Assembly (NCBI GenBank): GCA_965207935.1
Contig: CBDBNM010000002.1
Location: forward strand, 77,692 to 141,691
Length of the DNA: 64,000 bases
Reading direction: 5' to 3'
Source of the DNA: Dehalococcoidia bacterium
GTDB lineage: Bacteria; Chloroflexota; Dehalococcoidia; Lucifugimonadales; JAGWBF01
A program made the position numbers and the translations under genes. This document shows positions 16,352 to 35,212 of the stretch, one piece after another (position 1 is the stretch's first letter; every line of letters starts with the position of its first letter). The notes beneath the pieces are model-generated. The model was not told the origin of the DNA. It worked only from the letters and a program-made list of their open reading frames with translations, and did not search any database.

Positions 16352-16754
16352 TGGTGATTAGGCTACCCAAACATTGTAGTAAATATTGTGTGACAAACAC
16401 GTGACAAAACGACAATTTGTGTACCAATTGTGTGTCAATCTGGCGACCATAGCCGTTGTACAGCGTCTGAGGCTCGTGCCGGTCGGGGGGACAGGATGTG
16501 CTTGGCCCTTCACGGGCGCAGGGGATGTGTGCCCACTTTACGCGGCCGGGGAAAGTGTGCTGTTCATCAATGGGAACTTGGCGGGCCAAGGCATGCCGAT
16601 TTGCAAACTTCTCGGTGGGAGGTTCGAATATAGGATCGTGGTAGACTGAGCTGCTAGCAGGTGGTACAAAGTCCGGGCAGGTCATTTGGCCAGCGGGGGT
16701 ACGCCACCGTCACAAGATAGAATGGGCCAAATGAGTATGGAAAAGGAGGCACTT

Positions 16755-17330
16755 GTGTCTGAACCGGATAGTGGTGGGGGGTCCAAAACGATGGTAAAGC
16801 CCCATAGCGCGCGAAAAGGTCTGGTCATCGTGAATACCGGTGAGGGCAAGGGAAAGACGACAGCTGCCCTTGGCGTGATCTTTCGCGCTTGGGGCAGCGA
16901 CCTCAGAGTCAGGATGTTTCAGTTCATTAAGCACACATCCGCGAGGTTCGGTGAGCATAAGGCAGCTGAAAAACTGGACATCCAAATAGAGGCCTTGGGT
17001 GATGGTTGTACCAGGAATTCGAGCGATTTGGAAAAATCAATCTTACTGGCCAAAGAGCAGTGGATCCGCTGCAAGCACAATATACTTAACGGCAACGAAG
17101 AGATCGTCGTTCTGGACGAGTTCACTTACCCGATGCATTATGGGTGGGTCTCTGTCGCGGATGTCGTCGATACCCTAAGACGACGACCCGAAACGATGCA
17201 CGTCATCATCACGGGTCGATATGCTCCCCAGGAGTTGATTGACTGCGCAGACCTCGTTACTGAGATGAGGTCGATTAAGCATCCCTACCATGACCAGGGC
17301 ATCAAGGCTCAACTGGGAATAGAGCTTTAG
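16755..17330 (+). CDS. cobO: cob(I)yrinic acid a,c-diamide adenosyltransferase (CobO/BtuR family)
   Basis: Motifs GLVIVNTGEGKGKTTAALG, VVLDEFTY and a C-terminus KHPYHDQGIKAQLGIEL typical of BtuR/CobO. Start chosen at GTG 16755, 5 nt after AAGGAGG. The ORF track begins at 16686. Confidence 0.8.
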   Translation: MSEPDSGGGSKTMVKPHSARKGLVIVNTGEGKGKTTAALGVIFRAWGSDLRVRMFQFIKHTSARFGEHKAAEKLDIQIEALGDGCTRNSSDLEKSILLAKEQWIRCKHNILNGNEEIVVLDEFTYPMHYGWVSVADVVDTLRRRPETMHVIITGRYAPQELIDCADLVTEMRSIKHPYHDQGIKAQLGIEL

Positions 17331-18935
17331 TGGTGTCGCGGAGGGCCATCGGGGTAATCCAGTTGGTGGGCCGGACTGGACGAAATCAAGAACCGAGGCC
17401 GATTCCCTGGTCACGCCGTCGTTGGGCATGGGCACCGTGTACGTCAGCGTCGCCTCGTCTCCCTCCACCTCGATGGCCTCAACGAAGTTCCGGACGAGCG
17501 CCTTCTTCTCCGGTATCGTCCCCTTCTTCAGAAAGTCCCGGAAGTCCGCCACGTACCGCGCTATCTCCTTGGTGTCAGGAATGGAAACCCTGCGCTGCTC
17601 TAGCTGGGCCTCGGCGTCCTCCCTAGCAGCCTCAAGCTGCTCCTCACGGTGCCTCAGGGACATGATGCGGGGCGACAGGACCTCAAGGGTCAGGTCGCTG
17701 GTCTCAATGGCCTCGTAGAGCTTCCCCAGACGCTTCCTCACGTCACCAAGCTCCGCCTCCACAACCTCCAGCCTGCCGGACAGCTCTCCCGCCATGGCGT
17801 CGATCTCCTCCGCCACAAGCTGCACCAACTCGGTGATGGTCTCCTCGGTCAGTATCCTCTCCCTGATCTTCTCCACCACGAAGGTCTCCAGCTTCGGGGC
17901 GTTCAGGTAGCGGGCGCTGCACGTCCCCGCTCCTTCCCTGAACAACGTCCCGCAGATGTAGTAGGCGAACTGGCCGCTCTTGGCTCCCTGGGCCGAATAC
18001 GGCCTGCCGCACACCCCACACTTGAGCAGCCCGCTCAACAGATACGGGCTTCCCACCCTCGCGGGCCTCTGCACCTTGGGGGCGCGCTCGCTCATCGCCT
18101 GCTGCACGGCGTCGTAAAGCTCCTTCGACACCAGCGCGGGCCACGCTCCCTCCACCCTCACCGGGTCCTGGGCCTTCTCGTTCTTGCCCTTGACTCCCCA
18201 CACGGCGGTTCCGGTGTACGCCTCGTTGCGCAGCACGTAGTGGAGTCCGCCCTTGTACCACCGCTTGCCCCTGTTGGTGACTCCCCTCTCGTTCAACTCT
18301 TTGCACAGTTCTTTGAGGCCGTAGCCCTGTAGCGACTTCTCGAATATCTCCTTCACCACGGAAGCCGTGGCCGGGTCTACCTCCAGCGAGGGACGCTCCT
18401 TGGGTCCGTCCTGCACCTTGATCTTCCGGTAGCCGAAGGGGGCCTTGGAGCCCAGGAAGAAACCTCTCGAAGCGGCCTCCCGCATCCCCCGGACGACCTC
18501 TTGGGCCAAATTCTCGCTGTAATATTCGTCCACGCTCTCGATGATTCCCTCAAGCAGCCTGCCGGTGGCGCTGTCCTCGGCCTGCTCGGTGATGGACACC
18601 ACGCGGATGCCCTTGCGCCGCAGCTGGGCCTTGAAGGCCACGGCGTGCTCCCGCTTGCGGGTGAACCTACTGAATTTCCAGACTAAGATGACCTCAAAGG
18701 GCGCCTGGGGCTTGGAGCCCTCCTCGATCATCTTCCTGAACTGGGGCCGGTCGGCGACGCGGCCGCTCTCGGCCTCGTCGATGTACTCGCGGGCCACCGA
18801 GTAGCCGTTGGCCTTCGCGTACTCCTTGAGCGCCCTTAGCTGGGCCGCCACGGACAGGTCCACGTCCTGGCGGTCGCTGGACACCCTGGCGTAGAGGGCT
18901 GCCGGCGTCAGGGGCTGCAGGTGCTTCTTCTTCAT
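17175..18935 (-). CDS. large serine recombinase (resolvase/invertase N-domain, recombinase domain, zinc ribbon, coiled coil)
   Basis: 586 aa. Motifs: ALYARVSSDRQ catalytic Ser, RPQFRKMIEE, CGVCGRPY...YYICG zinc ribbon, and a long coiled-coil region. The last ~52 codons are antisense to the cobO 3' end and are probably not native. Confidence 0.9.
   Translation of the reverse strand: MKKKHLQPLTPAALYARVSSDRQDVDLSVAAQLRALKEYAKANGYSVAREYIDEAESGRVADRPQFRKMIEEGSKPQAPFEVILVWKFSRFTRKREHAVAFKAQLRRKGIRVVSITEQAEDSATGRLLEGIIESVDEYYSENLAQEVVRGMREAASRGFFLGSKAPFGYRKIKVQDGPKERPSLEVDPATASVVKEIFEKSLQGYGLKELCKELNERGVTNRGKRWYKGGLHYVLRNEAYTGTAVWGVKGKNEKAQDPVRVEGAWPALVSKELYDAVQQAMSERAPKVQRPARVGSPYLLSGLLKCGVCGRPYSAQGAKSGQFAYYICGTLFREGAGTCSARYLNAPKLETFVVEKIRERILTEETITELVQLVAEEIDAMAGELSGRLEVVEAELGDVRKRLGKLYEAIETSDLTLEVLSPRIMSLRHREEQLEAAREDAEAQLEQRRVSIPDTKEIARYVADFRDFLKKGTIPEKKALVRNFVEAIEVEGDEATLTYTVPMPNDGVTRESASVLDFVQSGPPTGLPRWPSATPLKLYSQLSLDALVMVGMLNRPHLSNEVCAVNQLLGSISTRDDDVHRFGSSS
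17363..17394. repeat. left junction (attL-like): tRNA-Ile 3'-end-like core TTGGTGGGCCGGA, 7 nt, then AAATCAAGAACC
   Basis: Direct sequence comparison with 35115-35148. Confidence 0.5.
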
Positions 18936-19147
18936 GCTGTCCTCCTTAGATGTTACCGAGTCTTACTCAGTATCATGACTCACCAAAGGGGTCATTGTCA
19001 AGAAACGGCTGTCGGTCGCTTTTCTATATCACTCCACCGAAACCGCAAGATACCGAAAGCTGCCGTAGGACTTCCCTGGGAAGCTGGAATACTCCTGCCA
19101 GCGAAGACGATAAGACCCTCGTATCTCTATCGGTGACTCTCGGCCCT

Positions 19148-19711
19148 TCACAGTTCCCGGCCTGGCGTTGGCGGCCCACGCCAATGCTCCCGAGACTTCT
19201 CGTCCCTCGTGTATGCGAAGTCGGCGTCCACCAGGTCTCTGTGTGTGGGAGCCTTCCAGTATGACGAGTCGTTGGTCAGCAACACCGCGTATCCAGCCTT
19301 GCACTGCTCCAGCTTGAAGCGCATGCGCTCAAGTCTCTGAATGTCCCGGAGGAAGTCATACCGCCCTTGGTCTTGTGCGCTTTGGTTGCGAAGGACAAAG
19401 GATTCGTCGTCTTGCTCCAGTTCCAATCCCCGAGTCTTGTACTTCAACTCGATGGCGATCCCTTCCAACGGAAGCCAGATGTCGAGGAATCTCCTCTGGT
19501 GCTCTACCTGCATGACATCGACCTCTAATCTGACCTGACTTTCCGGCATGGCCTGGTGAATATGCCATGCCAGAGCGTGCTGGAAGTCTGCTTCAGAATG
19601 AAACAGCTTCCGCGTACTTGCCAAGCTGGTCAGAAGATCGTTAACACCGAACATTGCCTTACTCATTTCCAGCCTGCGACAAAAGCCCCTCTCATCAGTT
19701 CCCCATTGCAA
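19148..19711 (-). CDS. PD-(D/E)xK nuclease-fold protein (uncharacterised)
   Basis: SEADFQHAL...FLDIWLP...IAIELKYK gives an E...D...ExK arrangement. The likely start is the internal MSKAMF. Confidence 0.45.
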   Translation of the reverse strand: MQWGTDERGFCRRLEMSKAMFGVNDLLTSLASTRKLFHSEADFQHALAWHIHQAMPESQVRLEVDVMQVEHQRRFLDIWLPLEGIAIELKYKTRGLELEQDDESFVLRNQSAQDQGRYDFLRDIQRLERMRFKLEQCKAGYAVLLTNDSSYWKAPTHRDLVDADFAYTRDEKSREHWRGPPTPGREL

Positions 19712-19723
19712 CCCCGGTCGTTC

Positions 19724-20710
19724 CTACAGCTGGCGTGGTTCATTTCTTGAATGCTCCCACGTCTCGATGGGGGCCACATGTGGGGGAAGATAACGGTTGG
19801 CTATATCAAGCACCATACCGTAGCGGTGTTTCACCTCGTCTGTCCGATTGTCTGTGCCAAAACCGACGACGGCCCTCAGGCCTCCTGAAAGGCTAGCGAT
19901 ACCGGCTGGCGTCAGCCCGACGCTCAGTCGAGCGTCAACCAATTCCTGGAGATCAACCCTCAGTTCTTCTAAGGCACAGTGCCACTCCCAAACATACTGC
20001 AATAGCTGAAAGGGCGCGTAGAATACCTTGTAATCGTTGGTCTGGGCGTCCTTCAGCTCGATTAGAACCAGGCGCCCCTTCGGATCAACTGCAATCTGAT
20101 CTACCTTCCTAGCTTTGGCACCTATCTCTGGCTCTTTCCATCCCTGCTGCCTAGCCGTTGCCTGTATAGATTTGAGTGCTGCTTTCACCTCAAGGAACTT
20201 CTTGGTCTCTTCTCGATGCTTCGCGGATTCATAGTTAAGGACAGCCTCACGGTCGAAAGGGACCCACTGTTCCGACACTCTTGACCATCGCGATTGGACT
20301 TCGCCCTCTCCCTCTGTGAAACTCGGATTGACGTCCACGACGCTCAGATAAGCCTTAAGCGCCTCGATGAACCCACCGTCGCCAATCCTCCATCGACCAA
20401 AGAGTCCCGTTCCCTTTGCACGTGGCTGGCCCATGTACTTCGGGTCGGCGTAGGCTTTCAGGTATCTTGCAGGTCGTCGTAGCGTTTGGACTGTGAGAAT
20501 AGTCGTCAGCCCGCAGTACACCTGTATCTTGTCATTGACCCGGAAGTGTACGTCCAACTCTGTGCCCTTGAACTCAACCCGGTTCAGGGCCATCACCGGC
20601 GCGAGGAACTCCCCCGGCTTCAGGAGTCCCCGCAACTGCTCGGAAGGAGCACGCGGGTATTTGATTATCGGGGTCGCCATAGCGATCCTCCTAAAGACGG
20701 TATCGAGCAC
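19724..20710 (-). CDS. uncharacterised protein with a C-terminal PD-(D/E)xK-like motif
   Basis: 328 aa with VDQIAVDPKGRLVLIELKD (D...ExK). The N-terminal ~170 aa are unrecognised. There is a 20-nt overlap with the upstream gene. Confidence 0.4.
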   Translation of the reverse strand: MLDTVFRRIAMATPIIKYPRAPSEQLRGLLKPGEFLAPVMALNRVEFKGTELDVHFRVNDKIQVYCGLTTILTVQTLRRPARYLKAYADPKYMGQPRAKGTGLFGRWRIGDGGFIEALKAYLSVVDVNPSFTEGEGEVQSRWSRVSEQWVPFDREAVLNYESAKHREETKKFLEVKAALKSIQATARQQGWKEPEIGAKARKVDQIAVDPKGRLVLIELKDAQTNDYKVFYAPFQLLQYVWEWHCALEELRVDLQELVDARLSVGLTPAGIASLSGGLRAVVGFGTDNRTDEVKHRYGMVLDIANRYLPPHVAPIETWEHSRNEPRQL

Positions 20711-21647
20711 GCATGTAAGCCGCCCAGTCTCTCAATCCTTCAGCCTCGCCGGCGCGGACGACTTCCGATGCAGGAAGAAACGGGGCCATGGCCGTGTCGG
20801 GGAGAAGATGCTTCCAGGCATCCCAATGCTCGGCAATGTCAGTGTTGGCGTCGTGAGCGCATAGTGCGAACCATGCCCGTTCAACCATGTCCTCCTGTTC
20901 AAGGCCACGGGCTATGGCAAGGTTTCGCATAGGCTGTTGCATGTCGTAGGCGAAGGGGCATGGCCCATCCAGGTCGGCATGGGGGAATGCGTTTCTGACG
21001 GAGCCGTGACTCTTGGCGAATATCTCCCAATAGCGTCTGTCCCTACTCTTCCTCCAAGGTCTTCTGAGGTAACAGGCGTCGGGGTCATTCAAGAAGAGTA
21101 CCGCAGAGTTGCAGACATCCTTACGGCGGTTTCCCCGGCTCCGTCGTCCACCGCAATGCGTGAAGCTGCCCTCGCTGAGCTTGACCTCCATCAAGACGAC
21201 AGCGCGGCGGCCATTCTCCAGCCACCCCCATAACGCCACATCTACTCCCGTGGCAGGCTCGTTTTCAGCAGGCCACTCGCCGTCCAGTTCTCCGAGCAAT
21301 CTCCCAGGGGGAATCCACTCGAAACTCAGCCTATCAATGATTAGTTGAGCGCCAACCAGCTCGCTTAGTTGTTCGGACAAGACCTCCCTGAGTCCTTCTC
21401 GGAACGGCAGAAAGAGGTTGAACGCGAATGCCTGTGAGCTGAGTATGTGGGCGACGTGCTCATGCAGCCTGATGGAGTCGGCGCGGGCCGTCGCCTTCGC
21501 TGAATCGCGGTAGGAGTCGTATATTCCGTCCGTCCACCTGGCCCATGCCGGAGGACGTCTGCCGCCGTAGTCGCACCACTCTTCCATGTGCGCTCTAAGG
21601 GATTCAGCAAAGGGTGTTGGTCGGTAGCCGGTCCTATCGTTACTCAT
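20691..21647 (-). CDS. restriction-endonuclease-like (PD-(D/E)xK) protein
   Basis: 318 aa. LSSQAFAFNLFLPF followed by GVDVALWGW...AVVLMEVKLSE gives D...ExK. Confidence 0.45.
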   Translation of the reverse strand: MSNDRTGYRPTPFAESLRAHMEEWCDYGGRRPPAWARWTDGIYDSYRDSAKATARADSIRLHEHVAHILSSQAFAFNLFLPFREGLREVLSEQLSELVGAQLIIDRLSFEWIPPGRLLGELDGEWPAENEPATGVDVALWGWLENGRRAVVLMEVKLSEGSFTHCGGRRSRGNRRKDVCNSAVLFLNDPDACYLRRPWRKSRDRRYWEIFAKSHGSVRNAFPHADLDGPCPFAYDMQQPMRNLAIARGLEQEDMVERAWFALCAHDANTDIAEHWDAWKHLLPDTAMAPFLPASEVVRAGEAEGLRDWAAYMRARYRL

Positions 21648-21698
21648 GGGCTTCTAACGGCAATGTCCAGTAGATTCAACGTCAGTCATTGGACCGTG

Positions 21699-22583
21699 CT
21701 ATACGGCCCTGGTGTCTCCAGTTGGCTGATACCGATATCCGGTGGGAAGCTCGGCGGTTCGCAAGGCCAAATCCATTGCGTTGCGGTCAGCTGCATATAG
21801 CTCTGTAGAACCTTCTATCATCATCCTGTTCAGCGTGTTGACGAACTCCTCACCGCCCTCTTGAGGTGATGGTGCTTGACATCGTAGCAACTGCGCCTCG
21901 GGAGACTTTTCAAAGCTAATCCGGCCGGATTGGCGATCCACTTCTACGACGGGACCCAGAATCTGTCCCGCGTGGCCGTCTGACACAAGGCACAGCCCTG
22001 TGGATGGCGATAGAGGAAACCAAACAAAGGTCTCCCGCTGTGCAGATTCAGCCGTGCTGGCGCACATTATCTTGTCCGATGTGAAGAAGGACTGGGGCTT
22101 ACTCAACACGAGGGGGCACAGCAGATAGTGTGTCAATGTACGCGAGACGCTGTTCACTAGGTCTCGGAAGACCCCGACGTCCTGGTGCGACGTCAGACGG
22201 TTCATCTCCCCTTCGGCTTGTTGTTGGGTGAGCCCTGAAGTTTGACGGCACTTGTCAACAACGTGTTTGATCTGGAGACGACAGGCTTGGGAACGTACGT
22301 AGTGCATGGCGATGAAGTCATAGATGTCACGGCCAACATCCGCCTTTGCGAAATCTCCGTGACTGAATCGGTAGAGGGTGTCTTTGAACCCGTTTTCGAG
22401 GTCCGTTATGTAATCGTCAACACCCTTCGAGCAATCTACTTCGAAAATCCCGACACCTCTGATGGATCGTTCCGTTGGTCGATAACTGGACGTGTTCAGG
22501 TACCAGGTTTCCCAAGAATTGGGCTGGCGGCCCACAAATGAGAAGTTCCGGAGTAGCTGTCGCTGAATCCTGTGCTGCCCCAT
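21699..22583 (-). CDS. DUF4238-like protein
   Basis: The N-terminal QHRIQRQLLRNFSF resembles the H-x-[IV]-P/Q-x-x-x-L-x-x-F opening motif of DUF4238. 294 aa. Confidence 0.4.
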   Translation of the reverse strand: MGQHRIQRQLLRNFSFVGRQPNSWETWYLNTSSYRPTERSIRGVGIFEVDCSKGVDDYITDLENGFKDTLYRFSHGDFAKADVGRDIYDFIAMHYVRSQACRLQIKHVVDKCRQTSGLTQQQAEGEMNRLTSHQDVGVFRDLVNSVSRTLTHYLLCPLVLSKPQSFFTSDKIMCASTAESAQRETFVWFPLSPSTGLCLVSDGHAGQILGPVVEVDRQSGRISFEKSPEAQLLRCQAPSPQEGGEEFVNTLNRMMIEGSTELYAADRNAMDLALRTAELPTGYRYQPTGDTRAV

Positions 22584-22585
22584 GG

Positions 22586-23014
22586 CTACTGGCTTGCCTC
22601 TGTTCGACGTGTCTCGACCTCCACTGACAAGAATCTTGGGGCGTTGAGGATTTTCGCACCCTGATGTTCCTGGAGGGGCAACAGATGCCGCCGATCACCG
22701 GTCACGAGGTAGTCGGCGGAAGCCTCCACAGCGCACTCCAGGATGCGGTTGTCCGCATGGCATCCCTCAATCACCTCCGGTAGCCGACGGGGGTAGATTA
22801 CTGTCCCGGCGTTCCCCAGCGCTCTGAGCACCTGGGACGAGCGTTACTCATCCCAACCGAACTTACGCCCTAGCACCCCGGCAGCTTCCTCCAAGATGAA
22901 GGTGGACAGGTAAAGCTCGAACCGACCCCTGAGTGCCAGTTCAAGCACAAGGCGTTCATTGCCAGGGAAGTTCAGGCCGGAGACGATGACGTTGGTGTCG
23001 AGGACGACCCTCAT
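22586..23014 (-). pseudogene. PIN-domain toxin (PIN_3-like) interrupted by an in-frame TAA
   Basis: The ATG at 23014 overlaps the antitoxin stop (ATGA). Translation gives MRVVLDTNVIVSGL...GRKFGWDE, then TAA at 22844-22846, then the same frame continues ...ILECAVEASADYLVTGDRRHLLPL. Confidence 0.7.
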
Positions 23015-23268
23015 GCACGGGCCGAGCCGATCTCGGCCCGGTACTCTTCCACCAGAGCGGCCACGTCTTCAGGCCCGATGCCCTTCGCCCTGGCCCGCTC
23101 CTCTCCGTACCGGAGAAGCTGTCTCCACTCCAACTCCTCGATGTAGCGCAGCAGCGCCTCACGAAGAAACTCGCTCCGGGACCGTCCCTGCTGCTTCATC
23201 ACCGCGTCCACCCGGTCGGCCATGTCCGGCGGCAGGGAGAAGGTAATGGTCTTGGTGGTTCGCGACAT
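23011..23268 (-). CDS. ribbon-helix-helix (CopG/MetJ-type) antitoxin
   Basis: 85 aa. KTITFSLPPDMADRVDAVMKQQGRSRSEFLREALLRYI is a typical RHH. It has a 4-nt overlap with the PIN gene. Confidence 0.75.
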   Translation of the reverse strand: MSRTTKTITFSLPPDMADRVDAVMKQQGRSRSEFLREALLRYIEELEWRQLLRYGEERARAKGIGPEDVAALVEEYRAEIGSARA

Positions 23269-23439
23269 GAATCACCTCTTGTTAGTCAGTCTTACCCAGA
23301 GTATGGCGCTATCTGCGGCTCACTGTCAATCGGTTCACGCACCAGACCGGCTTCCTGCGCAGACCCGCCTCACAGGGCGCGAGATTCGCAGGGTTGTCGA
23401 GGGGGTTGTACCCGTGTACAACAATCATGAGAAAGTAGA

Positions 23440-26400
23440 CGAGAAGCAGTCGGAGGGTATCGTAGCTGAAATCGGGGTGAATGGGGCATCCTGCTAAATC
23501 GCAGCGAGCAATCCGGTTCCGGGGTTCGCTCCACGGTCATGGGGCAGCCGCAGCTAGGAGATGGGGCAAGTGGAACATGGCGTTTGCGGAAGTTATGGGG
23601 CAGCGCCAGCTACGGAATGGGTCAAGTGGAACATTGATGCCGAAGAGAAGCAGAAGTCGTGGTCCTGAGCCGTTCAGTCCGCGTTCTCGCGCTTCGCAGG
23701 CGGCCTGGGGGCAGGCAGAGATTGAGACGCCTGATGCCGAAGGTGGGCGCGGGCGATCATTCGGGCCGGGATGCGCAGGCCGCGCCGCACCGTCTCCTGC
23801 TGCTCGACGGCGCACGCCTCAGCCCGGCGATCTGTCGATTGACTTCTCTCGTTGGCGCTTCTCATATTGCTCATCCCGCCGGCGTTTCATGGGCCGGGTG
23901 TGCGTTCCAGTCTGAGCGGTCGAGACGCCGGGCGTAACTGCCTGTACGACTAGTCACATGAGCGCCCATGTAGGGCCTCGGGCCAGCGAGCACTTCCGCG
24001 ATGCCGGTGGGCGGTACAGGGGATGGAAGTTGGTTGGAAAAATCCAAGTCGGGTCATTTCGTAGCTGATGCAGGGGCGAATCCGCCTCTACAGGCCGTAA
24101 CCAGTGAACAGTTCGACTTGCGGGTACGTTCCGGTCTGGAGTTGGATGCGCCGTAGCTAAGAGTTGCGTTTATGCAAGTGGCTGAGGTCGGGTCTGAGTT
24201 GGAAGGGCCATAGCTGGAAGTTGGAATTATGCGCGGCGAGGGAAAGGCCGCCGTCGGGATCGGTAAGCAGGCGAAGAAGGCTGCGGCGGGCGTCGTCCGG
24301 GATGTGGGGATGGTCGCCAGGCTGACACATGGGACGGTCGCACAGCCTGAATGTGTGGCCTACGGTTCCCGATTATTCGCTCGTGGCCTCGCACGTCGGG
24401 CTGGACGAGATAAGCGATGACAAGTCGTTCCTGCCCGTCACATCGAGCGGTGCGTGATGGACGCGCCAATGAAAGGGCGGATGGCGGAAACGTCGATAAC
24501 GGGGCCGGAGGGTTGTACAGAGAATCGGTCATTCGGACGGAGATGCGGAATGTACGCTGAGCGCGGTGGTGTAGGCGTTCGCACCACAACCTGGTCAATC
24601 GGAGGAAGCGATTGGTATGAAAGGGCCGGTCGCAGGGCCGTGTGCAGGCGCTGTAGCTGAGATGTGCATCGGTCGATGGCGGAGCGGTCATGGTCGTGCG
24701 CATTCTCCGTAGCTGGGATGTGCATGTTCTCGTGGAAGTCGAGCAGAATCCGGCGTTCGGGTTAGATACGAGGGCGAAGATGGCGGGCTGGCCGATTTGG
24801 GTGGCCTCATTGTGATACGTCAGCCCGTCGATATCGTCGAAGAGGTCGTCGAGGACATGGGCGACGAGGTCTCCGGGTTAATCAGCGGTCCCGCCGGTTT
24901 TGCAACGAAATGCACTTTTGGGAGCTGTTGGGGGCTGACACGGTAAGTGAGGGGAATGCCCTTTCGTCCCCTACAGGAAGTCCTGGGAACGGCTTCTGCG
25001 ACAATTTGGCAGCAAGTTGCGAGGGCTTCGTGTCGTCCGTTGGGTGACGATTCTGGGCAGGGCTGCGTAGCTATGAGTCGTAGCTGGTGGAGAGGGGGAC
25101 GAGAAAGCGTGCTGACAACCCCTGACCGGTGGGCTCTGCAACGGATTGTACTCGGATGGGCGGAATGGGAGATACGTGACCGATCGCGTCTGCAAGTTGT
25201 CCCAGCAAAGCTGCTGGGAGAGGCCCTATTGGAAGTGTCCGGAACGGAAAAGGCGGCCATGGTTGTACCTGATGCATCAGGGCCAGGGGCCTTCTGTCGA
25301 GGGCAGTGTGGCGGTAGCATCCATGCGTCACCCATGACGCCATGTTCGGCAGGAGCATCGACGTTGGTGGTGATGATGGGCACGTCGCCCTCCCCGTCGG
25401 CGATGTCGAGGAAGGCGGTCTCGCTGGCGGGAGACTCGAAGACGAATAGCACGTGGGGCAGATGTCCCTTCGTTGTCCCGTTAAGTGTAGGCGCTGCTTG
25501 ATGGTCATAACCCCTCGCATGGCGCTGTCACATGTGTCACCCGTTATGGCGTGCGGGGTTCTGGGGATCGCCGACGGTGCCGAACCCGTGTACAGAGATT
25601 TGGAGTTGGTGGTCAAAGTGTCATCGGGTCGTGGGCAAGCTGATTGGGAGGAGAAGGCCGCCTACAGGATCATTGCGGGAAGCACTTTGATTCCGGAGTT
25701 CCTTCCACGGTCATGGGGCAGTCGCAGCTAGGGAATGGGGAAAGTGGAACATGGCGGTTGGCCGGGATTGTGGGGCATTGCCAGCTACGAAATGGGGAAA
25801 CTGGAACATGGACGCGAAGACGGCTCGGAACGAGCAACGGACACGGGACACGAGGGTGTCGGTGGTGATGCGTAGAACGCGGCGACGGCGTCCTGGTTAT
25901 TCACGATCATCAGCCTGAGCACGCGATGCGGGACGCTGTGCGTGATCTCGCGGGCCACGTGTTGGGAGAGGCCGAGCGTCAAGGACGGCAGGACGGCGTC
26001 AGGCTCATCTACGACGTGAGAGCGTGACCGGGCGGACGCCAGGGACGACATCGTGGAGAAAGCTGGCGTTCACGACGCCGGCGGTGCCCCCGTGATGAAC
26101 ATGGCGGGAGCAAGCGATGGGGAGTCGAGCCCAGGGGCAACGTCTCTAGCCAGAAATTCACCGTGCCGTCGATCATGGGCTGATGCGTCAGACTACAATC
26201 GCCCAGGGGCGGTCTTCGGCCTGGGAGGGCTGTAAGGGGGATCGGAGTTAGTCGCAGAATACAATCTGGGTGATATTCGTAGCTGAATGAAGGGGAATCG
26301 GGGCGAAGCGAAGGGAATCCAGCGAGCAGTTTTACTGCGGCTCTATCGCAACTATATTGCACTGATTGTATTGTAGGAATTGTACTTTCTGAGGCATGAC

Positions 26401-26730
26401 GACCCAAGCGGTGGGCCATGATGAGCCTGTCGATGGACGAAGCGGCGGGTTTCCGGCGACGGCGTGAAGCCCCCTATTGGACAGCCCCTACCGGACCCTG
26501 GCGGACGCTCTGGTGGATGATTGAGGCAAGGTGTCTGCTGCTGCCGAGGCTCTGATGGGGTGAACTACCGTACGATCGCCGCAAGCTGTGAAACCGGGCG
26601 GGAGACGCGCCGGACGATGAAGGGGGTTTGGGGCAAAGAGAGTGCTGTAGAGGACTGATATTCGGCTGGTAGCTTCAGTGCGAGATGGTGAGATGGCCGC
26701 CTTCCCCGTGGGAGCCATCGGCATGTTCTT
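23440..26730. repeat. ORF-poor tract of about 5-6 degenerate tandem modules (~0.5-0.65 kb) carrying a recurring GTAGCTG / CAGCTA(G/C)G..ATGGGG..GTGGAACAT motif set
   Basis: TAGCT/AGCTA-centred motifs occur at 23463, 23552, 23608, 24062, 24154, 24211, 24654, 24710, 25068, 25081, 25726, 25783, 26280 and 26670. Four motif pairs are spaced 56-57 nt apart. Segments 23526-23640 and 25700-25815 align over ~110 nt. Confidence 0.6.
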
Positions 26731-29700
26731 CTAGCTACGCGCCAACCCATCTGGCCCCACTACGAGTTCCCAGGCCACCAGTTCCAAGTCCTCGACCGAT
26801 GGTTTCCTGGTCTCAGGTCGTGCGATAGGGCGGTCAAGTCCTTCGGCTTGGACAGCCCCTCGGAGCGCAGTCAGCGCCTGAACCACTTGCCCTTGTTCTG
26901 CACGAGTTGGCGCAAGCCGGTTTATGACTCTCACCGGGTCTCGCATTACCACGCGCCTGGTCGCGTCCGATGGTAACGGCATTTCAACCCACTCGTTGAA
27001 GAAGCTGAATAGGTCGGGGTGAGATTGCAATAGGTCGTCACGATTGAGGAACTGTCTAATGCGTCTCGTGAAACTGTCGGATGTAACTGCGGATATGGCG
27101 TCCAAGTATGCTTGGCCGATCTGGTCCACGGCGGCTTTCAGAGGCTCCTTTAGGTGTTTGAATGGGTTTTCGTTAGGCGGTATCTCGAAGCGGTGCTCAT
27201 CTCTGCCGGCCTCCACAATGGATAGGACATCACTTGGCGATGTCAGGGGTTGCGCCACGTTGCCCAGTGGATAGAAGCGCCAGAACACTTCGCCCGACGC
27301 CTCTTCGGGCATTTTCAGCATGACGTAGACACCGTTCGCCATGCCCTTCTTCACACTGTAAACCCCGTTGGGAATGTCCCGTACGTCCTCGGTAGCGAAC
27401 TCCTTCATCATGTCCAGATACCTGTTCAGCAACTCCGCGCCCGCGTCCAGTCCCTGGCTTCGCTCGCCCTCTCGGTACACGTGGTCCGCCTGGACTCCGC
27501 CGGCTCGCAGCTGCATCACCTTGTCCAGTTCCTTCGCCTCAATCTGCTCACCGAGCACCGAGGCGTCCAAAGCGACCGCCTCCTCTATGGTCTCAATCTT
27601 CCTTGTCAGGTTCTGAACCAGATTCAGTAGGTCTTCTAGGCCGTGCTCAGGCATCAGGTTGTAGATGTACACCTTGTCGTGGGGAGAAAACAGGCGGTCG
27701 ATGCGACCAGCCCGTTGGATCATCCTCACCGGGTTCCAGGGCAGGTCGTAGTTGACCAGGAACTGGGCATCCTGGAGGTTCTGGCCCTCCGAGAGTACGT
27801 CTGTGGCTATCAACAATTCGATGCCCTGCGCTCTCAGAGGCTCTATCTTCCTAAGAAGGGCGGGATCATCCAGAGGTTCGGTCTCGCGATGTGCTGCCAA
27901 GGGCGCGAACCGCTCAAGCACCGAACGCCTCCGATTCCGGTCATCTCCGCCGGTTAGCAGGGACATCCACCGTGCATCCTTCAGATTGCTCTGAACGCGG
28001 ACAGTGCTCTTCAATGAGTCCACATCTCCGCCGAACTGCTTAAACAGGTGTTGGGCGGTGTCCTTGTAGGTCGTAAACAGGGCTACCTTGGTGGGTTGCC
28101 CTTGGTCATCCTCTTTTGGCAGTCCTTCGAGCAGCTTGCGCACAGCCTGGGCCTTGGGGTCGCCCTGCTCGGCCAGCATCTCCTCCAGCCACTGAAGCCG
28201 AGTGAGAAGCGTCTGAAGCCTGTCCCGGTCGAACTCCACATCTGCCTGCAACCGCCCTCGAAGGTCCACGTCCTCCGGCGCAACAAGTTCCTGTTGCAAT
28301 GCCGCCACTGCCTTGGGGTCCATGTCCTCTAGGTCCTGGTCGTGGTCGGGCAACGAACCCCCCAGCACACCCCGCAGCTTGTATGCCTGCTTGGGGGTCA
28401 GGACATGTCCCTGATCCAGCCTCGCAAGGAAAAGGTTGAGATAGTCTACTAGACTTCTCACCGTGGACGTGAGCGCGGCCAGGGAACTCTCCATGCGCTT
28501 CAAGAGGATGGTGCGCATGATGCCGACGAAGTTGGCGTTGCGTTGCTTCAGTTGTGCGCTGGTCTCCTTCTCACCAGTCTCAACGCCGTACTCGTCCAGG
28601 CGGTAGACGGCGAAGTTGAGGTGCTCAATGGCGTCGATGATGTCGTGGTAGATGTTTCCATACAGGCCTTGCAGACTGTAGTCCACCGCCTTCGGTATCT
28701 CGTGTTCCGGGAAGCGCAGCGGCTGCCCATTGACCTCCATCGTCTCTCCTGCATCCTGCATGGACCGGATGTCGTGACGGGTTCGGCGTACGAGGGACAG
28801 CATCATAGTGTCCAGTAGGCCGGAGTCGGACTCCCCCTTCTCAATGGCCTGGAACGCCGTTTTGAGGTTGGGTATTGGCCCTCGCCCTGCGTACCAGGTG
28901 TCGTCTCCCCTCGTGATGAGCATGAGCTGGTGATACATATCCCAGACGGAGTTGTTGATGGGCGTGGCTGTCATCAGCACCACCCTGGTGTCCGGTTTGC
29001 CCCCTCGGATGATCTCCATAAGGGCGCGGTAGCGCTTCGTCCTTGGGTTGCGGAAGTTGTGGGACTCGTCCACCAGGATGACGTCGTACTGGTCCTGGTA
29101 ACGCTTCAACTCGGCCCGGAGCCGCTGCCGTTGAACGGGTGACGGCTCCTCGTCGATGTCCACGAGGCTGGGAAGCGACTCCATTGTGACCGTGGTGGCG
29201 ATGATTCCCCACTCTGCGAACCTGTCGGTGCTCCAGTTGTCCTGAAGCTGGGCGGGGCAGACGATCAACGCCCGCGTGGAGGTTCTCGCTCGCTGCGGGT
29301 CATCGCTCCGCTGGTTGGCGAATTCCCTCAGGATGCCCAAGCCTTCGTAGGTCTTGCCTAAGCCCACCGAGTCGCACAGCATGGCCCCCCAGTGGCGTCT
29401 CAGCAATGCTACGCAGCGTTGGACGGCCTGCTGCTGGAATCCGGCCAGCCTCCCCATGACTTCTTCCGACAGCCCCATCTCCAGGAACCGGCCGTAGGCG
29501 GCATGTAGTGACTTGAGCATGACCTGCCACGGGGTGTAGCGCCTCCCGAACAGGACACACTCTTCTAGGCGCTGGACGAACTGTGCCTTGCAGTCCTGGC
29601 CAAGCTCCCACTTCTCGTCGAACCAGCCTTCCAATTGCACCGTCAGGTCATGGTCGTAAGAGGTCAGGTTCAACTCGGAGTTCTCGGATAGGCCGCTCTT

Positions 29701-30303
29701 GGTTAGGTTGCTGGAGCCGACGGCGGCATATCGTCCCATCTCGCCGGAGAACAGGTACGCCTTGGCGTGAAGTCGATTCCTCGGCGAGCGGTGGTCCAGC
29801 ACCTGTTCGGGCAGCACCTTTCCTCTATCGGACCCGAGGAATCGCCTGACCTCCACCCCGTCCTTTCTCAGGAAGTCGGCCAGCGTAGTGACCCGCTCCC
29901 ATGCGGACAGGTCGAAGGCTGCCGCCTCCGGCGTCACTCCGCGTGCCAGAAGCTCCCGCCGTTCCTCGTGAGTCAGCAGCAGCCACGGGTAGCCGCCTTC
30001 GAGGAAGGTGTACCAGTCCACGGACTCCTCTGGGCCTCGAAGCTCGTCGCGGTCGCCGGGTTGGGACAGTACGTCTCCCGGCCCACGCCGATTCATGAAG
30101 GGCCGTTCTCCCAGCAACAGCCGCACTCTGGCGGCTCCCTCCATGCCATGCTTCAGGTCTAGGAATCCATCGGGTGTCAGGTATGCCGTTGCGATGCGAA
30201 TGTCCTGAGGGATGACGCGAGCCAGCGCACCGAATAGATGCTCCCGCATGAAGCCTGTTGTCGGCTCGTTGGCAACTGGAAGGACGTCTGTCTCATTGGT
30301 CAT
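26731..30303 (-). CDS. PLD-family (HKD) nuclease domain fused to an SNF2-family helicase
   Basis: 1190 aa. N-terminal motifs: IRIATAYLTPDGF...RLHAKAYLF...VGSSNLTKSG (HxK...GSxN). Then SNF2 motifs: DSVGLGKTYEG, ILVDESHNFRN, LMTATPINNS, ATDVLSEGQNLQD and WNPVRMIQRAGRIDR. Confidence 0.9.
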   Translation of the reverse strand: MTNETDVLPVANEPTTGFMREHLFGALARVIPQDIRIATAYLTPDGFLDLKHGMEGAARVRLLLGERPFMNRRGPGDVLSQPGDRDELRGPEESVDWYTFLEGGYPWLLLTHEERRELLARGVTPEAAAFDLSAWERVTTLADFLRKDGVEVRRFLGSDRGKVLPEQVLDHRSPRNRLHAKAYLFSGEMGRYAAVGSSNLTKSGLSENSELNLTSYDHDLTVQLEGWFDEKWELGQDCKAQFVQRLEECVLFGRRYTPWQVMLKSLHAAYGRFLEMGLSEEVMGRLAGFQQQAVQRCVALLRRHWGAMLCDSVGLGKTYEGLGILREFANQRSDDPQRARTSTRALIVCPAQLQDNWSTDRFAEWGIIATTVTMESLPSLVDIDEEPSPVQRQRLRAELKRYQDQYDVILVDESHNFRNPRTKRYRALMEIIRGGKPDTRVVLMTATPINNSVWDMYHQLMLITRGDDTWYAGRGPIPNLKTAFQAIEKGESDSGLLDTMMLSLVRRTRHDIRSMQDAGETMEVNGQPLRFPEHEIPKAVDYSLQGLYGNIYHDIIDAIEHLNFAVYRLDEYGVETGEKETSAQLKQRNANFVGIMRTILLKRMESSLAALTSTVRSLVDYLNLFLARLDQGHVLTPKQAYKLRGVLGGSLPDHDQDLEDMDPKAVAALQQELVAPEDVDLRGRLQADVEFDRDRLQTLLTRLQWLEEMLAEQGDPKAQAVRKLLEGLPKEDDQGQPTKVALFTTYKDTAQHLFKQFGGDVDSLKSTVRVQSNLKDARWMSLLTGGDDRNRRRSVLERFAPLAAHRETEPLDDPALLRKIEPLRAQGIELLIATDVLSEGQNLQDAQFLVNYDLPWNPVRMIQRAGRIDRLFSPHDKVYIYNLMPEHGLEDLLNLVQNLTRKIETIEEAVALDASVLGEQIEAKELDKVMQLRAGGVQADHVYREGERSQGLDAGAELLNRYLDMMKEFATEDVRDIPNGVYSVKKGMANGVYVMLKMPEEASGEVFWRFYPLGNVAQPLTSPSDVLSIVEAGRDEHRFEIPPNENPFKHLKEPLKAAVDQIGQAYLDAISAVTSDSFTRRIRQFLNRDDLLQSHPDLFSFFNEWVEMPLPSDATRRVVMRDPVRVINRLAPTRAEQGQVVQALTALRGAVQAEGLDRPIARPETRKPSVEDLELVAWELVVGPDGLARS

Positions 30304-30331
30304 AGTGGAGGAGTCTATGTTTACCTCGGAG

Positions 30332-30724
30332 CTACACTGAAACGATGCTCAGCCCCCGCATCCGCTCGAAATGCTGCGTGTTGTTGGTGAGCAGCGTCAG
30401 GTTGTTGCTTATCGCTGTGGCGCCTATCAGGATGTCCATATCTCCTATGAGATTCCCTTCTTCTCGCAGCCTGGCCCTTTCCGCGCCGAAGACCCGGCAG
30501 GCTTCATCGTCCAGCGGAACCACATTCACCGCTTCCAGGAACAGGCGCAGCGCCTCGGAGTCGGAATAAGGATTTCGGGATCGGGCCAGACCCTCGTAGA
30601 GTTCGGCCAAGGAAATTATGCTCATGCCGACTCCATCGGGCAGGAGTGCCTCCAACCGCCTGGCCGTTCTATCGGCCCTGTGCAGGTAGTCGATTGCCCA
30701 GTCTGTGTCCACGAGATACTCCAT
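30332..30724 (-). CDS. vapC: VapC-type PIN-domain toxin, with no separate antitoxin gene upstream
   Basis: 130 aa with YLVDTDWAIDYL, SLAELYEG, IGDMDILIGATAISNNLTLLTNN and HFERM. It starts 11 nt after the methyltransferase stop codon. Confidence 0.85.
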   Translation of the reverse strand: MEYLVDTDWAIDYLHRADRTARRLEALLPDGVGMSIISLAELYEGLARSRNPYSDSEALRLFLEAVNVVPLDDEACRVFGAERARLREEGNLIGDMDILIGATAISNNLTLLTNNTQHFERMRGLSIVSV

Positions 30725-30735
30725 GACGTTGGTTG

Positions 30736-33700
30736 CTAGAGCCTTGGTACGGGCCGCGTGCGGATGTCTCGGCTGGCGCGGATGTCTCTAATCAGTTCAT
30801 CCCCGTCAACACTCCATTTCCATGCACCGGCGGAGGCTTTCAAGGTGTTTAGTTTCCTCCAGTCCGACGGCATATCGGCACCCAACGCCTCGCGGCGTTC
30901 CCCAAGCCAATCGAGCATCAGTTTCCGTTCAGAAGCAGACAAGTCATACACATGAAAAACGATGGAGTCAATCTCCCGTTCGATACCCTCCAATTCTTCA
31001 GGCGAATTCTCAAAGCCAACTATTTCGTTTCCAAGCCGCTCGAGTTCAGCTTGGGCTTCGGTGCCGGGGGTTACGATAGGAGTTGGCTCGATGTAGCCAA
31101 TCTTGAACTCCTGAAACGAACCCCCGCGTGCAACCGTCAGCTTTGGGTAAAGGAAGTTGAGCACCGAAGAATTCATCATTGGCAACAGCCAACGCACTGG
31201 CTCAACTAGGAAGTTGGCAGGAGCGGAAATATACGCTTGGGATGTGTCTCTGGCAAATTTACTCTCTACTGCGAGGTTCCCCCACACAACTTTGGGGTGT
31301 TCGAACTCATGATAGAGACCCTCCTGCGGCTGTTGAAGCTCGTACCACGGGTGTAAATGTGCCGTAGCCCGCTCCTCAAGGTCGCTGCGAAACCACCTCA
31401 GATGGTCTCTGATGGCAGGATACTGATCTACGTCTACCCCACGACTCGTGAAGATGATGTAGAGTCCCGGTGAATGTGCCTTCCACCGCTTGATGTCCCG
31501 TCCGCGTAGCCACGGCTTGATGAGCTCCGCGCTTCGCGGGTCGTCCTCAATCAGTTCGTCACGCTTGTCCTGGTCTATGACGAACGCCTCGTTCAGACCT
31601 GTCTTGACGCCGTAGTACATGCGCCTATTGACGAACTCACCCAACGGAGTGCCCAGATTCATCAGCCGCTCGAAGAGGCGTATCAGGGCAGGATCTTCCA
31701 GAATCCAGCCATCCTTCTTCAGCATGACTTGGGGGAAATCGCCAATTGCGACCCTTGCGAGCAGCCCATCCAAGTCCTCCAACATGCCTCGCACCCTCTC
31801 GGTGTTGATTCTAAAGTCAGCTTCGGAGAGTTCCTTCCTAACGGGGGCGGATAGGTCGGCGACGGTCAGTGCGTGTCCCGCCATGTCATCTGCCCGGCGA
31901 CCCACTAACACAGCCGGGTACGCCGCGATAGCTTTGCCATTAGCTTCGAACAGAGGTAGATCGCCGAAATCGATTACGCTCTTTATGCGTAGTGAATTGG
32001 GCAAGTGTCCGCGGGTCCCCGCTCCATAGCCAGCCCGCATGTATTTGTTGCTGGTAATGAAGGCCAGCCAACCGCCGGGTCGAAGTAGTTGTAAGGCACG
32101 CGCGTAGAAGTAAACGAGGAGGTCCGCCCGTGAAGCGGCCACCTCCGGGAATGCCTCTCCATAGAAGAGTTCGTCCTCGTTGTCGATTCTCTCCATACGC
32201 ACATAGGGCGGGTTGGCAAGAACGATGTCGAAACCTGCCTCGGGATCGCCCTGTTGCAGGACATTGGGGAAGGCAACCGGCCACAGGAAGGGCTTCTGCA
32301 CTAGCGCGAAGTCCGTTGACTCCACTCCATCTCGAAGGGAGCGAATGCGCTCCATGAATCGGTCGGCTCTCCTCAGCGCGGCCTTACTGGGCTTCTCGGC
32401 TTTTCGTAGAGCCGCCCGCTTCTCCTCGGCCTTCCCCAGCGCATCTGTTAGGTGCAGAAGGATTATCTCCCGCTGGTCGCGGGCGATCAGGTCTCGCAAT
32501 TCACGGAGACGGGTCGGGTTTCTGTGTGTCCTCTCGAACTCCCTCCGCCGTTGGTCGATGTTGCGCTCCAATCTCTGGAGGCGGCTCTGGAGTTCCATGT
32601 CCAGTTGTATGCTTTTGGGCGCGGGCCAAGACTCCTTGAAGGTCACGCCCGCCACCCCGTCTACCAGCGAGTCGCCAGCCAGAATCTGAAAGTCCAGGTT
32701 GGGCAGTGCCCAATCGGAGTTCGGTTCAGGCGGCTCATCCATGTCCAACACCATAGAGAGCCAGAGGCGCAAGCGGCATATCTCAACGGCCTCAGGATTG
32801 ATGTCCACTCCGTAGAGGCTGCTCTCTATGATGCGCCGCTTCCATTCGCTCACTGTCCGGTAGAACTCGTTAGGCTCGACGTGGTTGCGCTGAGAGAAGA
32901 GAATCCCGCGACGCAGGGTCACCATCTCTTGGATGGTTCCTAGTAGGAACGCCCCTGAGCCGACGGCCGGATCGCAAACTCGCACCGTTTCCATCGCGTC
33001 GATGAGCGCATTAGCTGGGAAGTCTGGCAGAGGCTGATGCTCGTCCCTGGAACCAACGGCCTCTTGGCGCAGGGCCTCCAGGGTAGAATTTTCAACGCCG
33101 GTGGCATCACGCAAGTATCCGTCCAGGGCCTCCCGACACATGAAGTGGACAATCTCACGAGGGGTGTAGTAAGTGCCGGTGTCGTGACGCTCATCCCCCT
33201 GGTAGAGGTTCTCAAAGACCCGGCCTAGTAGCTCAGGATCTGGGTCAACGGATTGGTCGTCCGGCGTTGACTCTCTGGTGGTGAACCGATAGCGAGAAAG
33301 CAGGCCGAGGAGGGTTCGCTGCTGGCCTTCTTCACTATCGGCATCGGGGTCGAACACTTCGTCCGGCAGGGACACCTGCCCCGCGTCGTCGATGCGATCC
33401 TCCAGCGCGTTCCGACGGAACAGGCCACCATTTAGGTAGGGGACGTATCCCAGGACTGGGTGTTCGCTCCTACTGCTGCTCCCCGTCGCCATCGCATCGA
33501 AGAACATCGGGGTCAGGATGCCGCGATAGTATTCGCCCTCTTGCGTCTCTGCCCGTTTGTCCCAAAGATTCAGCAAGTAAGTCGGCGAACCCATCCCTCC
33601 GGGTGCTCCCAGCCAACGCTTGGCCTGAAGGAACCAGAGAAAGAGCACCCGGCCCATCTGTCGGGTGGCCCAGGCGCGGGCCTCCTCCTCGCCGAGAGAA

Positions 33701-34374: not shown

Positions 34375-34877
34375 GACGCAGACTCCACACCGTCAATGAT
34401 CTTAACTGTGGCGTGCTCGAAATCCATCCCGAACTTCGCACAGTCAAACGGATCGGGATAGACGATGGCCCTGTCAGGTTCCTTCGGAAACTTCACGGGC
34501 AGCCACCGCTCCACCTGCACGTTCTCCTCCCTAAACTGCTGCAGGACCGCCAGCACTCTCTTGGCCTCGTTCACCGCCCTGTCGTAAGTGGGATGCTCAG
34601 ACTGATAGTCGGGGAACGGTAGACCTAAACCCCACCCCATGAACCCAACCCTGTACCTAATCATCTCATTCGCGAGTCGCTTCATCTCAGCGTCAGTCAA
34701 CTCGTAATGCTCCCTGATAGCCTCGGCACTGATGCGGTACTCGCGGGCGGCACCCTTTACCCGTACCTTGGACGCCTCAAGCCGTCCATCTACGATTCGC
34801 TGGCGGACAGCCTGGGGCGTGATCCCAAAGAATTGGGCCACTTCAGGCACGGTGTACATTCTCTCTTTGGTCATCAC
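34371..34877 (-). CDS. excisionase/MerR-type HTH DNA-binding protein with an unknown C-terminal domain
   Basis: MYTVPEVAQFFGITPQAVRQRIVDGRLEA is an Xis-family HTH. It has a 4-nt ATGA overlap with the methyltransferase start and lies ~240 bp from the right junction. Confidence 0.65.
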   Translation of the reverse strand: MMTKERMYTVPEVAQFFGITPQAVRQRIVDGRLEASKVRVKGAAREYRISAEAIREHYELTDAEMKRLANEMIRYRVGFMGWGLGLPFPDYQSEHPTYDRAVNEAKRVLAVLQQFREENVQVERWLPVKFPKEPDRAIVYPDPFDCAKFGMDFEHATVKIIDGVESAS

Positions 34878-35114
34878 GCCTAACTCACGCCTTCCATCGA
34901 GTCGAGTAGCGAAGCAATTCTAGCAAAGCACCGCAATCGACACAACCTAGCAAAGGCGAGAAAGAAATGGGAAATTGGGGACTGGTTGGGTTTGCGCGCA
35001 CCTCTGCGGATGAGGACCGCAGGGGTGCGGAGGAATCTCAGTCTCGTGGACCCACCACCCAAGCCGTCAATGTAGAGTCCCTGACTACACCTCCAGCTTG
35101 AAGGTCAAGGCGAA

Positions 35115-35148
35115 GGTTCTTGATTTTATCAAGCTTGGTGGGCCCGGA
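35115..35148. repeat. right junction (attR-like): GGTTCTTGATTT, 8 nt, then TTGGTGGGCCCGGA (the 3' end of tRNA-Ile)
   Basis: GGTTCTTGATTT is the exact reverse complement of 17383-17394. The core overlaps the tRNA acceptor/CCA end. Confidence 0.5.
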
Positions 35149-35212
35149 TAGACTCGAACTATCGACCTCGGTCTTATCAGGACCGCGCTCTAACCACCTG
35201 AGCTACGGGCCC
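35136..35212 (-). tRNA. tRNA-Ile (anticodon GAU), CCA encoded
   Basis: The minus strand folds as GGGCCCG TA GCTC AGGTGGTTA GAGC G CGGTC CTGATAA GACCG AGGTC GATAG TTCGAGT CTATC CGGGCCC A CCA. Confidence 0.9.

Follow-up and report, generated by a model that had tools for sequence, protein, structure and literature searches.

Large serine recombinases of the integrase type consist of a resolvase catalytic domain, a recombinase domain, and a zinc ribbon with a coiled-coil insert. In the model phage serine integrases, the phage attachment site (attP) generally lies outside the coding sequence, and the targets are usually protein-coding genes. A different arrangement was described for dsiB of the Dehalococcoides ssrA islands, in which the recombinase gene always overlaps the attachment (att) site at its 3' end and has its stop codon outside the island (McMurdie et al. 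2011, BMC Genomics 12:287, PMC3146451). There, the DsiB C-termini are divergent, and the gene is proposed to be fully functional only on the circle or beside a neighbouring island that supplies the 3' fragment; the gene layout and the circle-only hypothesis are in this form already published, for dsiB, in 2011. Here, we report a large serine recombinase gene of this layout in a stretch of 64,000 nucleotides (nt) from a Dehalococcoidia bacterium (contig CBDBNM010000002.1, positions 77,692 to 141,691; the whole stretch is called the window below). The gene stands at one border of an island of about 17.8 kb, and a tRNA-Ile(GAU) gene stands at the other. We consider it likely that the island was inserted by this serine recombinase, its own, at the CCA end of the tRNA-Ile gene, that attP is located in the 3' end of the integrase gene, and that integration parts the gene from its true end of 16 codons.

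The integrases of phiC31, Bxb1, A118/LI, TP901-1, and SPbeta (SprA) have the same domain architecture as the protein reported here and an attP of about 50 bp with inverted half-sites. In the mycobacteriophages BPs, Brujita, and Charlie, in work attributed to Broussard et al. 2013, attP is said to lie in the repressor gene, and integration by a tyrosine integrase reportedly changes the repressor C-terminus, the swapped tail being a degradation tag. An attP inside a gene and a C-terminus altered by integration are common to those phages and to the present locus; the split gene is a repressor there and the integrase here. In phage Mx8, attP lies in the integrase gene itself and integration turns IntP into IntX, with a new 3' end and a reportedly changed activity (Tojo et al. 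1996; Magrini et al. 1999; via PMC6070905), and the SSV-type ("suicidal") archaeal tyrosine integrases have the recombination site in the open reading frame (ORF), where integration disrupts the gene (PMC7253208, PMC8371274). Mx8 and the present locus share an attP inside the integrase ORF and a product that changes with integration, although Mx8 is an experimentally supported case of a phage tyrosine recombinase, whereas ours is a serine recombinase with a layout read from sequence. In the archaeal SSV-type systems, integration leaves two large gene fragments and an inactive gene; here the exchange concerns only the last 16 of 540 codons. The resemblance to both systems is one of gene layout only, the present protein being without the tyrosine recombinase fold. 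The integrase segment swapped in Mx8 is reportedly much longer than the 16 codons discussed here.

Set beside DsiB, description against description (PMC3146451), the present protein is likewise a large serine recombinase of about 540 amino acids (aa) from the class Dehalococcoidia, its ORF likewise overlaps the att site at the 3' end and stops outside the island, the C-termini likewise diverge in alignments, and the islands stack in tandem. The differences begin with the target, which is a tRNA gene here (Ile; elsewhere Val, Met, Lys, Ala, Arg, and Leu) and not ssrA; in this genome, ssrA is on the other contig and no recombinase was found beside it. The integrase here shares the strand of the RNA gene and lies at the distant end of the island, whereas dsiB adjoins its RNA gene and is convergent with it. 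The syntenic integration module next to dsiB (the small serine recombinase DsiA, a RecF-like protein, ParB, and Mom with an embedded pseudo-tRNA) has no counterpart here: the genes next to the integrase are, by profile search, nucleases, DUF4238, and proteins of unknown function, and no Resolvase or ParB matches were found among them. The evidence added in the present study is a conserved tail of the circle form; the passages of PMC3146451 considered here show none for dsiB.

The profile search of the 586-aa integrase ORF gave Resolvase (PF00239, 2.8e-32), Recombinase (PF07508, 1.3e-24), and Zn_ribbon_recom (PF13408, 4e-15), in the domain order of the class, and the ORF is identified as a large serine recombinase. 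Its N-terminus, MKKKHLQPLTPAALYARVSS, agrees with the family consensus. Solved serine-integrase structures are matched up to about residue 437, and they are therefore silent on the C-terminal region. An earlier note on this DNA had proposed that the recombinase frame spans the island junction and contains the core repeat as LDFVQSGPP, and here ORF, domains, and the position of the repeat agree: the 27-mer CTTGATTTCGTCCAGTCCGGCCCACCA has one copy, at 17364-17390, the minus strand (17390 to 17364) codes for LDFVQSGPP, and the ORF crosses the junction at 17364-17375 (SGPP).

The alignment to related recombinases, which the note had named as its own test, came out in its favour. The protein search returned 120 homologues, 84-93% identical over about 89% of the query and 523-868 aa long, and all of them align through ...SASVLDFV[KQ]S[GS]PP and then diverge, with 0-344 residues after S[GS]PP (three end exactly there); the full 586-aa C-terminus is kept by none, and similarity stops exactly at SGPP. 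At the nucleotide level, per-position entropy over 31 aligned loci is close to 0 up to ...GGC CCA C and then rises to about 1.9 bits, with the break at 17364/17363. The last ten conserved codons of these loci are invariant including their third positions, unlike the codons upstream, which argues for a P half-site of attP inside the ORF.

If the two island ends are joined, as in the predicted circle, the integrase frame continues from SGPP into the tRNA-proximal end and gives a 540-aa protein, SGPP-SLIKSRTFALTFKLEV-stop, ending in ...SGPPSLIKSRTFALTFKLEV. In the integrated state, this hidden tail lies 17.8 kb away from the gene body. To follow it through the family, P' sites, i.e., the tRNA-proximal ends of related elements, were gathered from the 301 sampled genomes of the order together with a second genome collection (138 unique sites), and the tails were read on from CCA CCA in the integrase frame. 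Exactly 16 residues, with the stop at the same codon, were found in 115 of the 138 sites (83%), and the tail stop codons are TAG (76), TAA (28), and TGA (12); a stop exactly after 16 codons is expected by chance in 1.35% of frames. Leu, Ile, Met, Phe, or Val make up fractions of 0.93, 0.91, 0.88, and 0.86 at tail positions 10, 12, 14, and 16, and of 0.13, 0.01, 0.18, and 0.13 at positions 9, 11, 13, and 15. The tail leucines are spelled with up to six codons, and the second base stays T at alternate codons. Beyond the inverted repeat of the P' site the tail DNA varies freely (1-1.9 bits), and the DNA directly after the stop is unconstrained. Taken together, these codon patterns show selection at the amino-acid level on the last eight residues and the stop. 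The first eight residues (xLIKSRTF) are dictated by the P' inverted repeat.

Because the 16-residue tail has a fixed stop, alternating hydrophobic residues, and varied codons, we place the putative true C-terminus at 35088-35135. Its pattern, TFxLxFxLxV, suggests a beta-strand, and no degron-like motif is conserved in the 16 residues. The recombinase C-terminus does differ with integration state, as had been anticipated: the integrated copy encodes a 586-aa read-through product and the circle form a 540-aa product with the conserved tail. The excised-form tail is also much shorter and different, in line with the earlier note; of its range of 16 to 35 codons, 16 holds, by the 115 of 138 sites and by the side on which the crossover falls, and 35 does not. 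Complete genes, body plus tail, are rare in chromosomes, with 2 full-length genes among 12 P-O-P' joints in the 301 genomes and 1 in 81 sites of the second collection.

The attachment site itself can be reconstructed from the two island borders. The second core copy is the CCA end of tRNA-Ile(GAU): TTGGTGGGCC is common to 17363-17372 and 35135-35144, after which the left border continues with GGA and the right one with CGGA. Joining the island ends produces a site of about 52 bp with perfect 12-nt inverted repeats, GGTTCTTGATTT (35115-35126) and AAATCAAGAACC (17383-17394), which extend to 21-nt near-perfect inverted arms around a 10-nt centre. A site of about 50 bp with inverted half-sites and a short shared core is what characterizes the attP of large serine integrases, and the reconstructed site has all three; the core shared by attL and attR is 10 nt at the tRNA-Ile island and 15 nt at a second, tRNA-Val island of the same genome. 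The predicted attP joint of the circle reads ...GTCCAGTCCGGCCCACCAAGCTTGATAAAATC..., and the predicted attB joint of the empty site reads ...TAATCCAGTTGGTGGGCCCGGATAGAC....

By the symmetry of the arms, the crossover is predicted at the CC of 17368-17369, with the AC of 17366-17367 as the alternative. The earlier note had placed a 1-nt indel inside the exchanged core, and this proved not to be so: the element arm reads TCCGGCCC and the tRNA arm TCCGGGCCC, and the nucleotide by which they differ is located on the integrase side of the crossover; in 31 family members RGCCCAC stays with the integrase, and similarity is lost just beyond it. Had the strands been exchanged on the far side of this nucleotide, the tRNA-Ile of the empty site, the only one in the genome, would have a broken acceptor stem. 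These two observations rule out the excised tail of 35 codons.

The same genome has a second recombinase copy, 93% identical over residues 1-524, in an island at tRNA-Val(TAC) that starts right after the CCA with the same arm (...CCCACCA followed by GACTTGATAAAATCAAGAACC). The tail there, DLIKSRTFALRFQLAV-stop, is also 16 aa long and differs partly by synonymous changes, e.g., TTG to CTC. Among the 301 sampled genomes of the order, the P' arm was found in 98, with 0 matches for a control pattern, and in genomes of the order it stands directly after intact tRNA genes for Ile, Met, Lys, Ala, Arg, and Leu. The tRNA-Ile region was also compared with four genomes of the genus: the tRNA gene is syntenic there and, with its upstream flank, 81-86% identical, the P' arm is missing, and similarity to the window ends at the CCA; this comparison fixes and confirms the right, tRNA-side boundary of the island. 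The inverted arms, the same arm at tRNA-Val, the spread over 98 of 301 genomes, and the absence of control matches are the reasons why we read the junction as a real recombination joint. Searches with the exact attB pattern in the genome contig collection and with the exact attP patterns in IMG/VR and the JGI metagenome contigs returned no match. The features of the locus are collected in Table 1.

Table 1. Coordinates of the integrase locus, its predicted attachment site, and neighbouring features (positions in the window)
Feature	Position	Strand	Basis or remark
Integrated island, about 17.8 kb	17368-35141		attP reconstruction, family similarity break, synteny
Integrase ORF, integrated form, 586 aa	17175-18935	-	ORF list; domains Resolvase, Recombinase, Zn_ribbon_recom
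Conserved integrase body, residues 1-524, ends SGPP	17364-18935	-	homologue alignment and entropy
Read-through tail, 62 codons (residues 525-586) and stop, from chromosomal flank	17175-17363	-	in no homologue
Predicted 16 codons SLIKSRTFALTFKLEV completing the integrase in the circle; stop TAG 35085-35087	35088-35135	-	junction reconstruction
P half-site of attP, inside last ~10 conserved codons (SVLDFVQSG)	17370-17394	-	outer inverted repeat 17383-17394, pairs with 35115-35126
P' half-site of attP, GGTTCTTGATTTTATCAAGCT on + strand	35115-35135		arm present in 98/301 genomes of the order
Predicted central (crossover) dinucleotide CC in GC[CC]ACCA	17368-17369		symmetry centre of 21-nt arms and family similarity break
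Chromosomal B' flank, cobO stop to junction	17331-17363		without similarity to element ends
tRNA-Ile(GAU), integration target (B arm), intact, sole tRNA-Ile gene in genome	35136-35212	-	ARAGORN
cobO (ATP:corrinoid adenosyltransferase), intact	16686-17330	+	PF02572, residues 44-213 = profile positions 2-171/172
HTH_17 (excisionase-type helix-turn-helix) gene, first inside tRNA-proximal end	34371-34877	-	PF12728, E = 3e-06
Promoter-like site TTGACA, 18-nt spacer, CATGAT, 37 nt upstream of integrase start	18972-19001	-	consensus match only: 1 found vs 0.6 expected

In the mechanism that we propose, the 17.8-kb island would have been inserted by its own large serine recombinase, at the tRNA-Ile CCA end. 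The final ~10 conserved codons (SVLDFVQSGP) would at the same time be the P half-site, with the crossover within the GPP codons, and the real last 16 codons would follow the P' half-site. Integration would then place the 16-codon end (35088-35135) a whole island away from the gene body (17364-18935), the integrated copy would read 62 arbitrary codons into the chromosome and backwards through cobO, and the complete 540-aa protein would be encoded by the circular form only. Whether the tail matters to the enzyme is a more doubtful point: it is possible, at rather less than even chance in our estimate, that it contributes to the activity, stability, or control (e.g., in integration) of the enzyme made from the circle, the state in which integration is called for, and a chromosomal isoform that is altered or weakened would favour staying integrated. 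The earlier note had suggested that the exchange of C-termini may be a device for directionality or regulation; this is plausible as a hypothesis, and it was likewise raised for dsiB in 2011. Excision must work without the tail or with a tail supplied in trans, because integrated copies are intact and the family is widespread, present in multiple copies, and still mobile. Tentatively, and with still a little less confidence, one may think of the tail as a working part of an enzyme that occurs naturally in two isoforms according to DNA state, a 540-aa circle form competent for integration and read-through forms that are weakened or biased, such that insertion switches the enzyme down. The read-through forms might need, for example, the neighbouring helix-turn-helix (HTH) protein or a complete copy acting in trans. 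Circularization would bring the HTH_17 gene to a place about 207 nt beyond the end of the completed integrase, downstream and on the same strand, and its product may be a directionality factor or regulator. The extreme C-terminus of phiC31 integrase contributes an acidic patch where the enzyme meets its directionality factor, which makes a directionality role for C-terminal residues plausible, by analogy only.

Several points weigh against the proposed separation of the gene from a meaningful end. A strict empty site, with cobO beside tRNA-Ile, was not found, and the cobO loci of the relatives are without tRNA-Ile. The P' sites are related by descent, and their counts are not independent samples. 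Since xLIKSRTF is bound by the P' DNA site, only the last eight residues and the stop speak for selection at the protein level. An AlphaFold2 model of a circle-type homologue (P0069, 540 aa) from a 30-sequence alignment, the family being too uniform for a deeper one, had a mean predicted local distance difference test (pLDDT) of 40 and was unusable, so the beta-strand reading comes from the sequence pattern alone. The integrated frames are intact and the family is widespread, which indicates that the tail is not indispensable for every step, and some homologues stop right at SGPP.

Part of this would also be expected if the arrangement were a neutral by-product, i.e., if attP merely overlapped the gene end, any tail worked, and the 16 codons reflected a constraint on the DNA, such as extended recombinase binding or a promoter of the first operon. 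The arbitrary tails of integrated copies (0-344 aa), the three homologues that end exactly at S[GS]PP, the intact copies of a widespread family, and the eight tail residues fixed by the P' inverted repeat all fit such an explanation, and McMurdie et al. list the same "trivial explanation" for dsiB (PMC3146451). We consider it unlikely, however, as the DNA is free beyond the repeat (1-1.9 bits) and yet T is kept at the second base of alternate codons, leucine is spelled by 4-6 codons, the stop stays in place although all three stop codons are in use, and the sequence directly after the stop is unconstrained.

The read-through part of the integrated gene raises two further explanations. The earlier note had counted about 65 chromosomal codons after SGPP; their chromosomal origin stands, and their actual number is 62 (residues 525-586). 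Integrase and cobO are convergent, and their overlap at 17175-17330 measures 156 nt antisense to the cobO 3' end, the length the note had given. A signal scan of the region found neither a convincing terminator between integrase and cobO nor a further convincing signal. This absence and the convergent overlap would suit a selected antisense regulator of cobO in the form of integrase transcription into the gene, but the junction flank differs in every family member, cobO flanks the element only here, and cobO is intact with a paralogue elsewhere in the genome, and we regard such a regulator as highly improbable. Hardly credible at all is a genuine 586-aa protein with the cobO-antisense extension as a functional C-terminal domain: the frame is indeed open for 62 codons, but the comparison with homologues refutes it, the cobO-antisense segment being shared by none of the 120 homologues or 31 aligned loci, the sole match of the 62-codon tail in a genome search is the antisense strand of the cobO paralogue, and random frames of this genome stay open for at least 62 codons in 34% of cases. 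Because no homologue shares the tail and random frames are open so often, we take it as plain read-through.

The genome has two cobO paralogues, 73% identical, one in the window at 16686-17330 and the other at G000:C2:39910-40467, and the cobO genes of the closest relatives are about equally far from the window copy (at most 73% identical). The window copy sits in a non-syntenic region, between a giant surface-protein gene and the island.

Annotation pipelines give these recombinases arbitrary C-termini (523-868 aa among close homologues) and never the true end; with the 16-codon end located at the far island end, gene model and island borders can both be set with single-base precision. According to the 2014 paper on the Islander database, no serine integrase was known to target tRNA genes, and tRNA targeting had been ascribed to tyrosine integrases; the present elements add a large tRNA-targeting family of serine integrases. 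Members of the recombinase family were found in 116 of the 301 genomes (about 39%), with several copies per genome and mostly intact frames. If the tail affects activity or directionality, the family would offer a natural and easily tested integrase that is altered by its own reaction, and the reading with two isoforms would, if true, be the first demonstration of such a built-in switch in a serine integrase.

Roughly half of the homologues terminate in recurrent peptides, e.g., NLTVDRTEPFSAISSASLPGMGLSSGIGIV or THTVDTTIFEMWLGSLSTHQGLSIPVV, which are the antisense of the 3' end of a second, convergent serine recombinase from another subfamily (120 homologues, P0001-P0120; loci L029-L057). These recurrent antisense tails imply frequent stacking, at tRNA genes, of elements whose integrases have opposite polarity. 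Such tails result when two polarity types stack at one tRNA, one with the integrase far away and on the same strand, as here, and one with the integrase adjoining and convergent, as in dsiB. Tail-to-tail recombinase pairs are in apparent conflict with a non-palindromic crossover, and the stacking of element types of opposite polarity resolves this conflict. A pair of this kind is seen at the tRNA-Val island (G000:C2:668962-683000), where the integrase overlaps a convergent serine recombinase, 59% identical, tail to tail over about 100 nt with one shared core, the tail of each gene being the antisense of the last codons of the other.

Many copies of the arm are preceded not by a tRNA but by stubs of recombinase 3' ends of 30-65 codons (...SKMVLSTVKSGPP; G000:C2:700400-700479, L236-L244, and many of L058-L207). 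All of these stubs continue in frame into an intact 16-codon tail, and they look like relics of older elements in arrays. A minority of island ends, at seven loci (L064, L071, L072, L120, L234, L235, and L243), has a tail of 13 residues, xLTKSRTFIRRTQ-stop, followed by another conserved flank, ...CGGACACAATAGACACGGAAAACTCAGGTACTCGTGGGCGG...; this class is probably a distinct element backbone.

The target tRNA-Ile(GAU) at 35136-35212 is outside any rRNA operon, and the DNA downstream of tRNA-Ile differs in each of the four same-genus genomes (L222-L225), a hotspot of variation. Some homologue tails of the form xxTRT were considered as possible antisense tRNA genes; this was ruled out, as ARAGORN finds none there, and T-arm-like half-sites are present instead. 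At seven loci (L034, L035, L037, L039, L047, L052, and L056), GACTCGAACC is found in the chromosomal flank beyond the core, about 9 nt away from the centre, where it mimics a tRNA T arm in inverted orientation. This mimic would make the target site nearly palindromic; no tRNA gene is present there.

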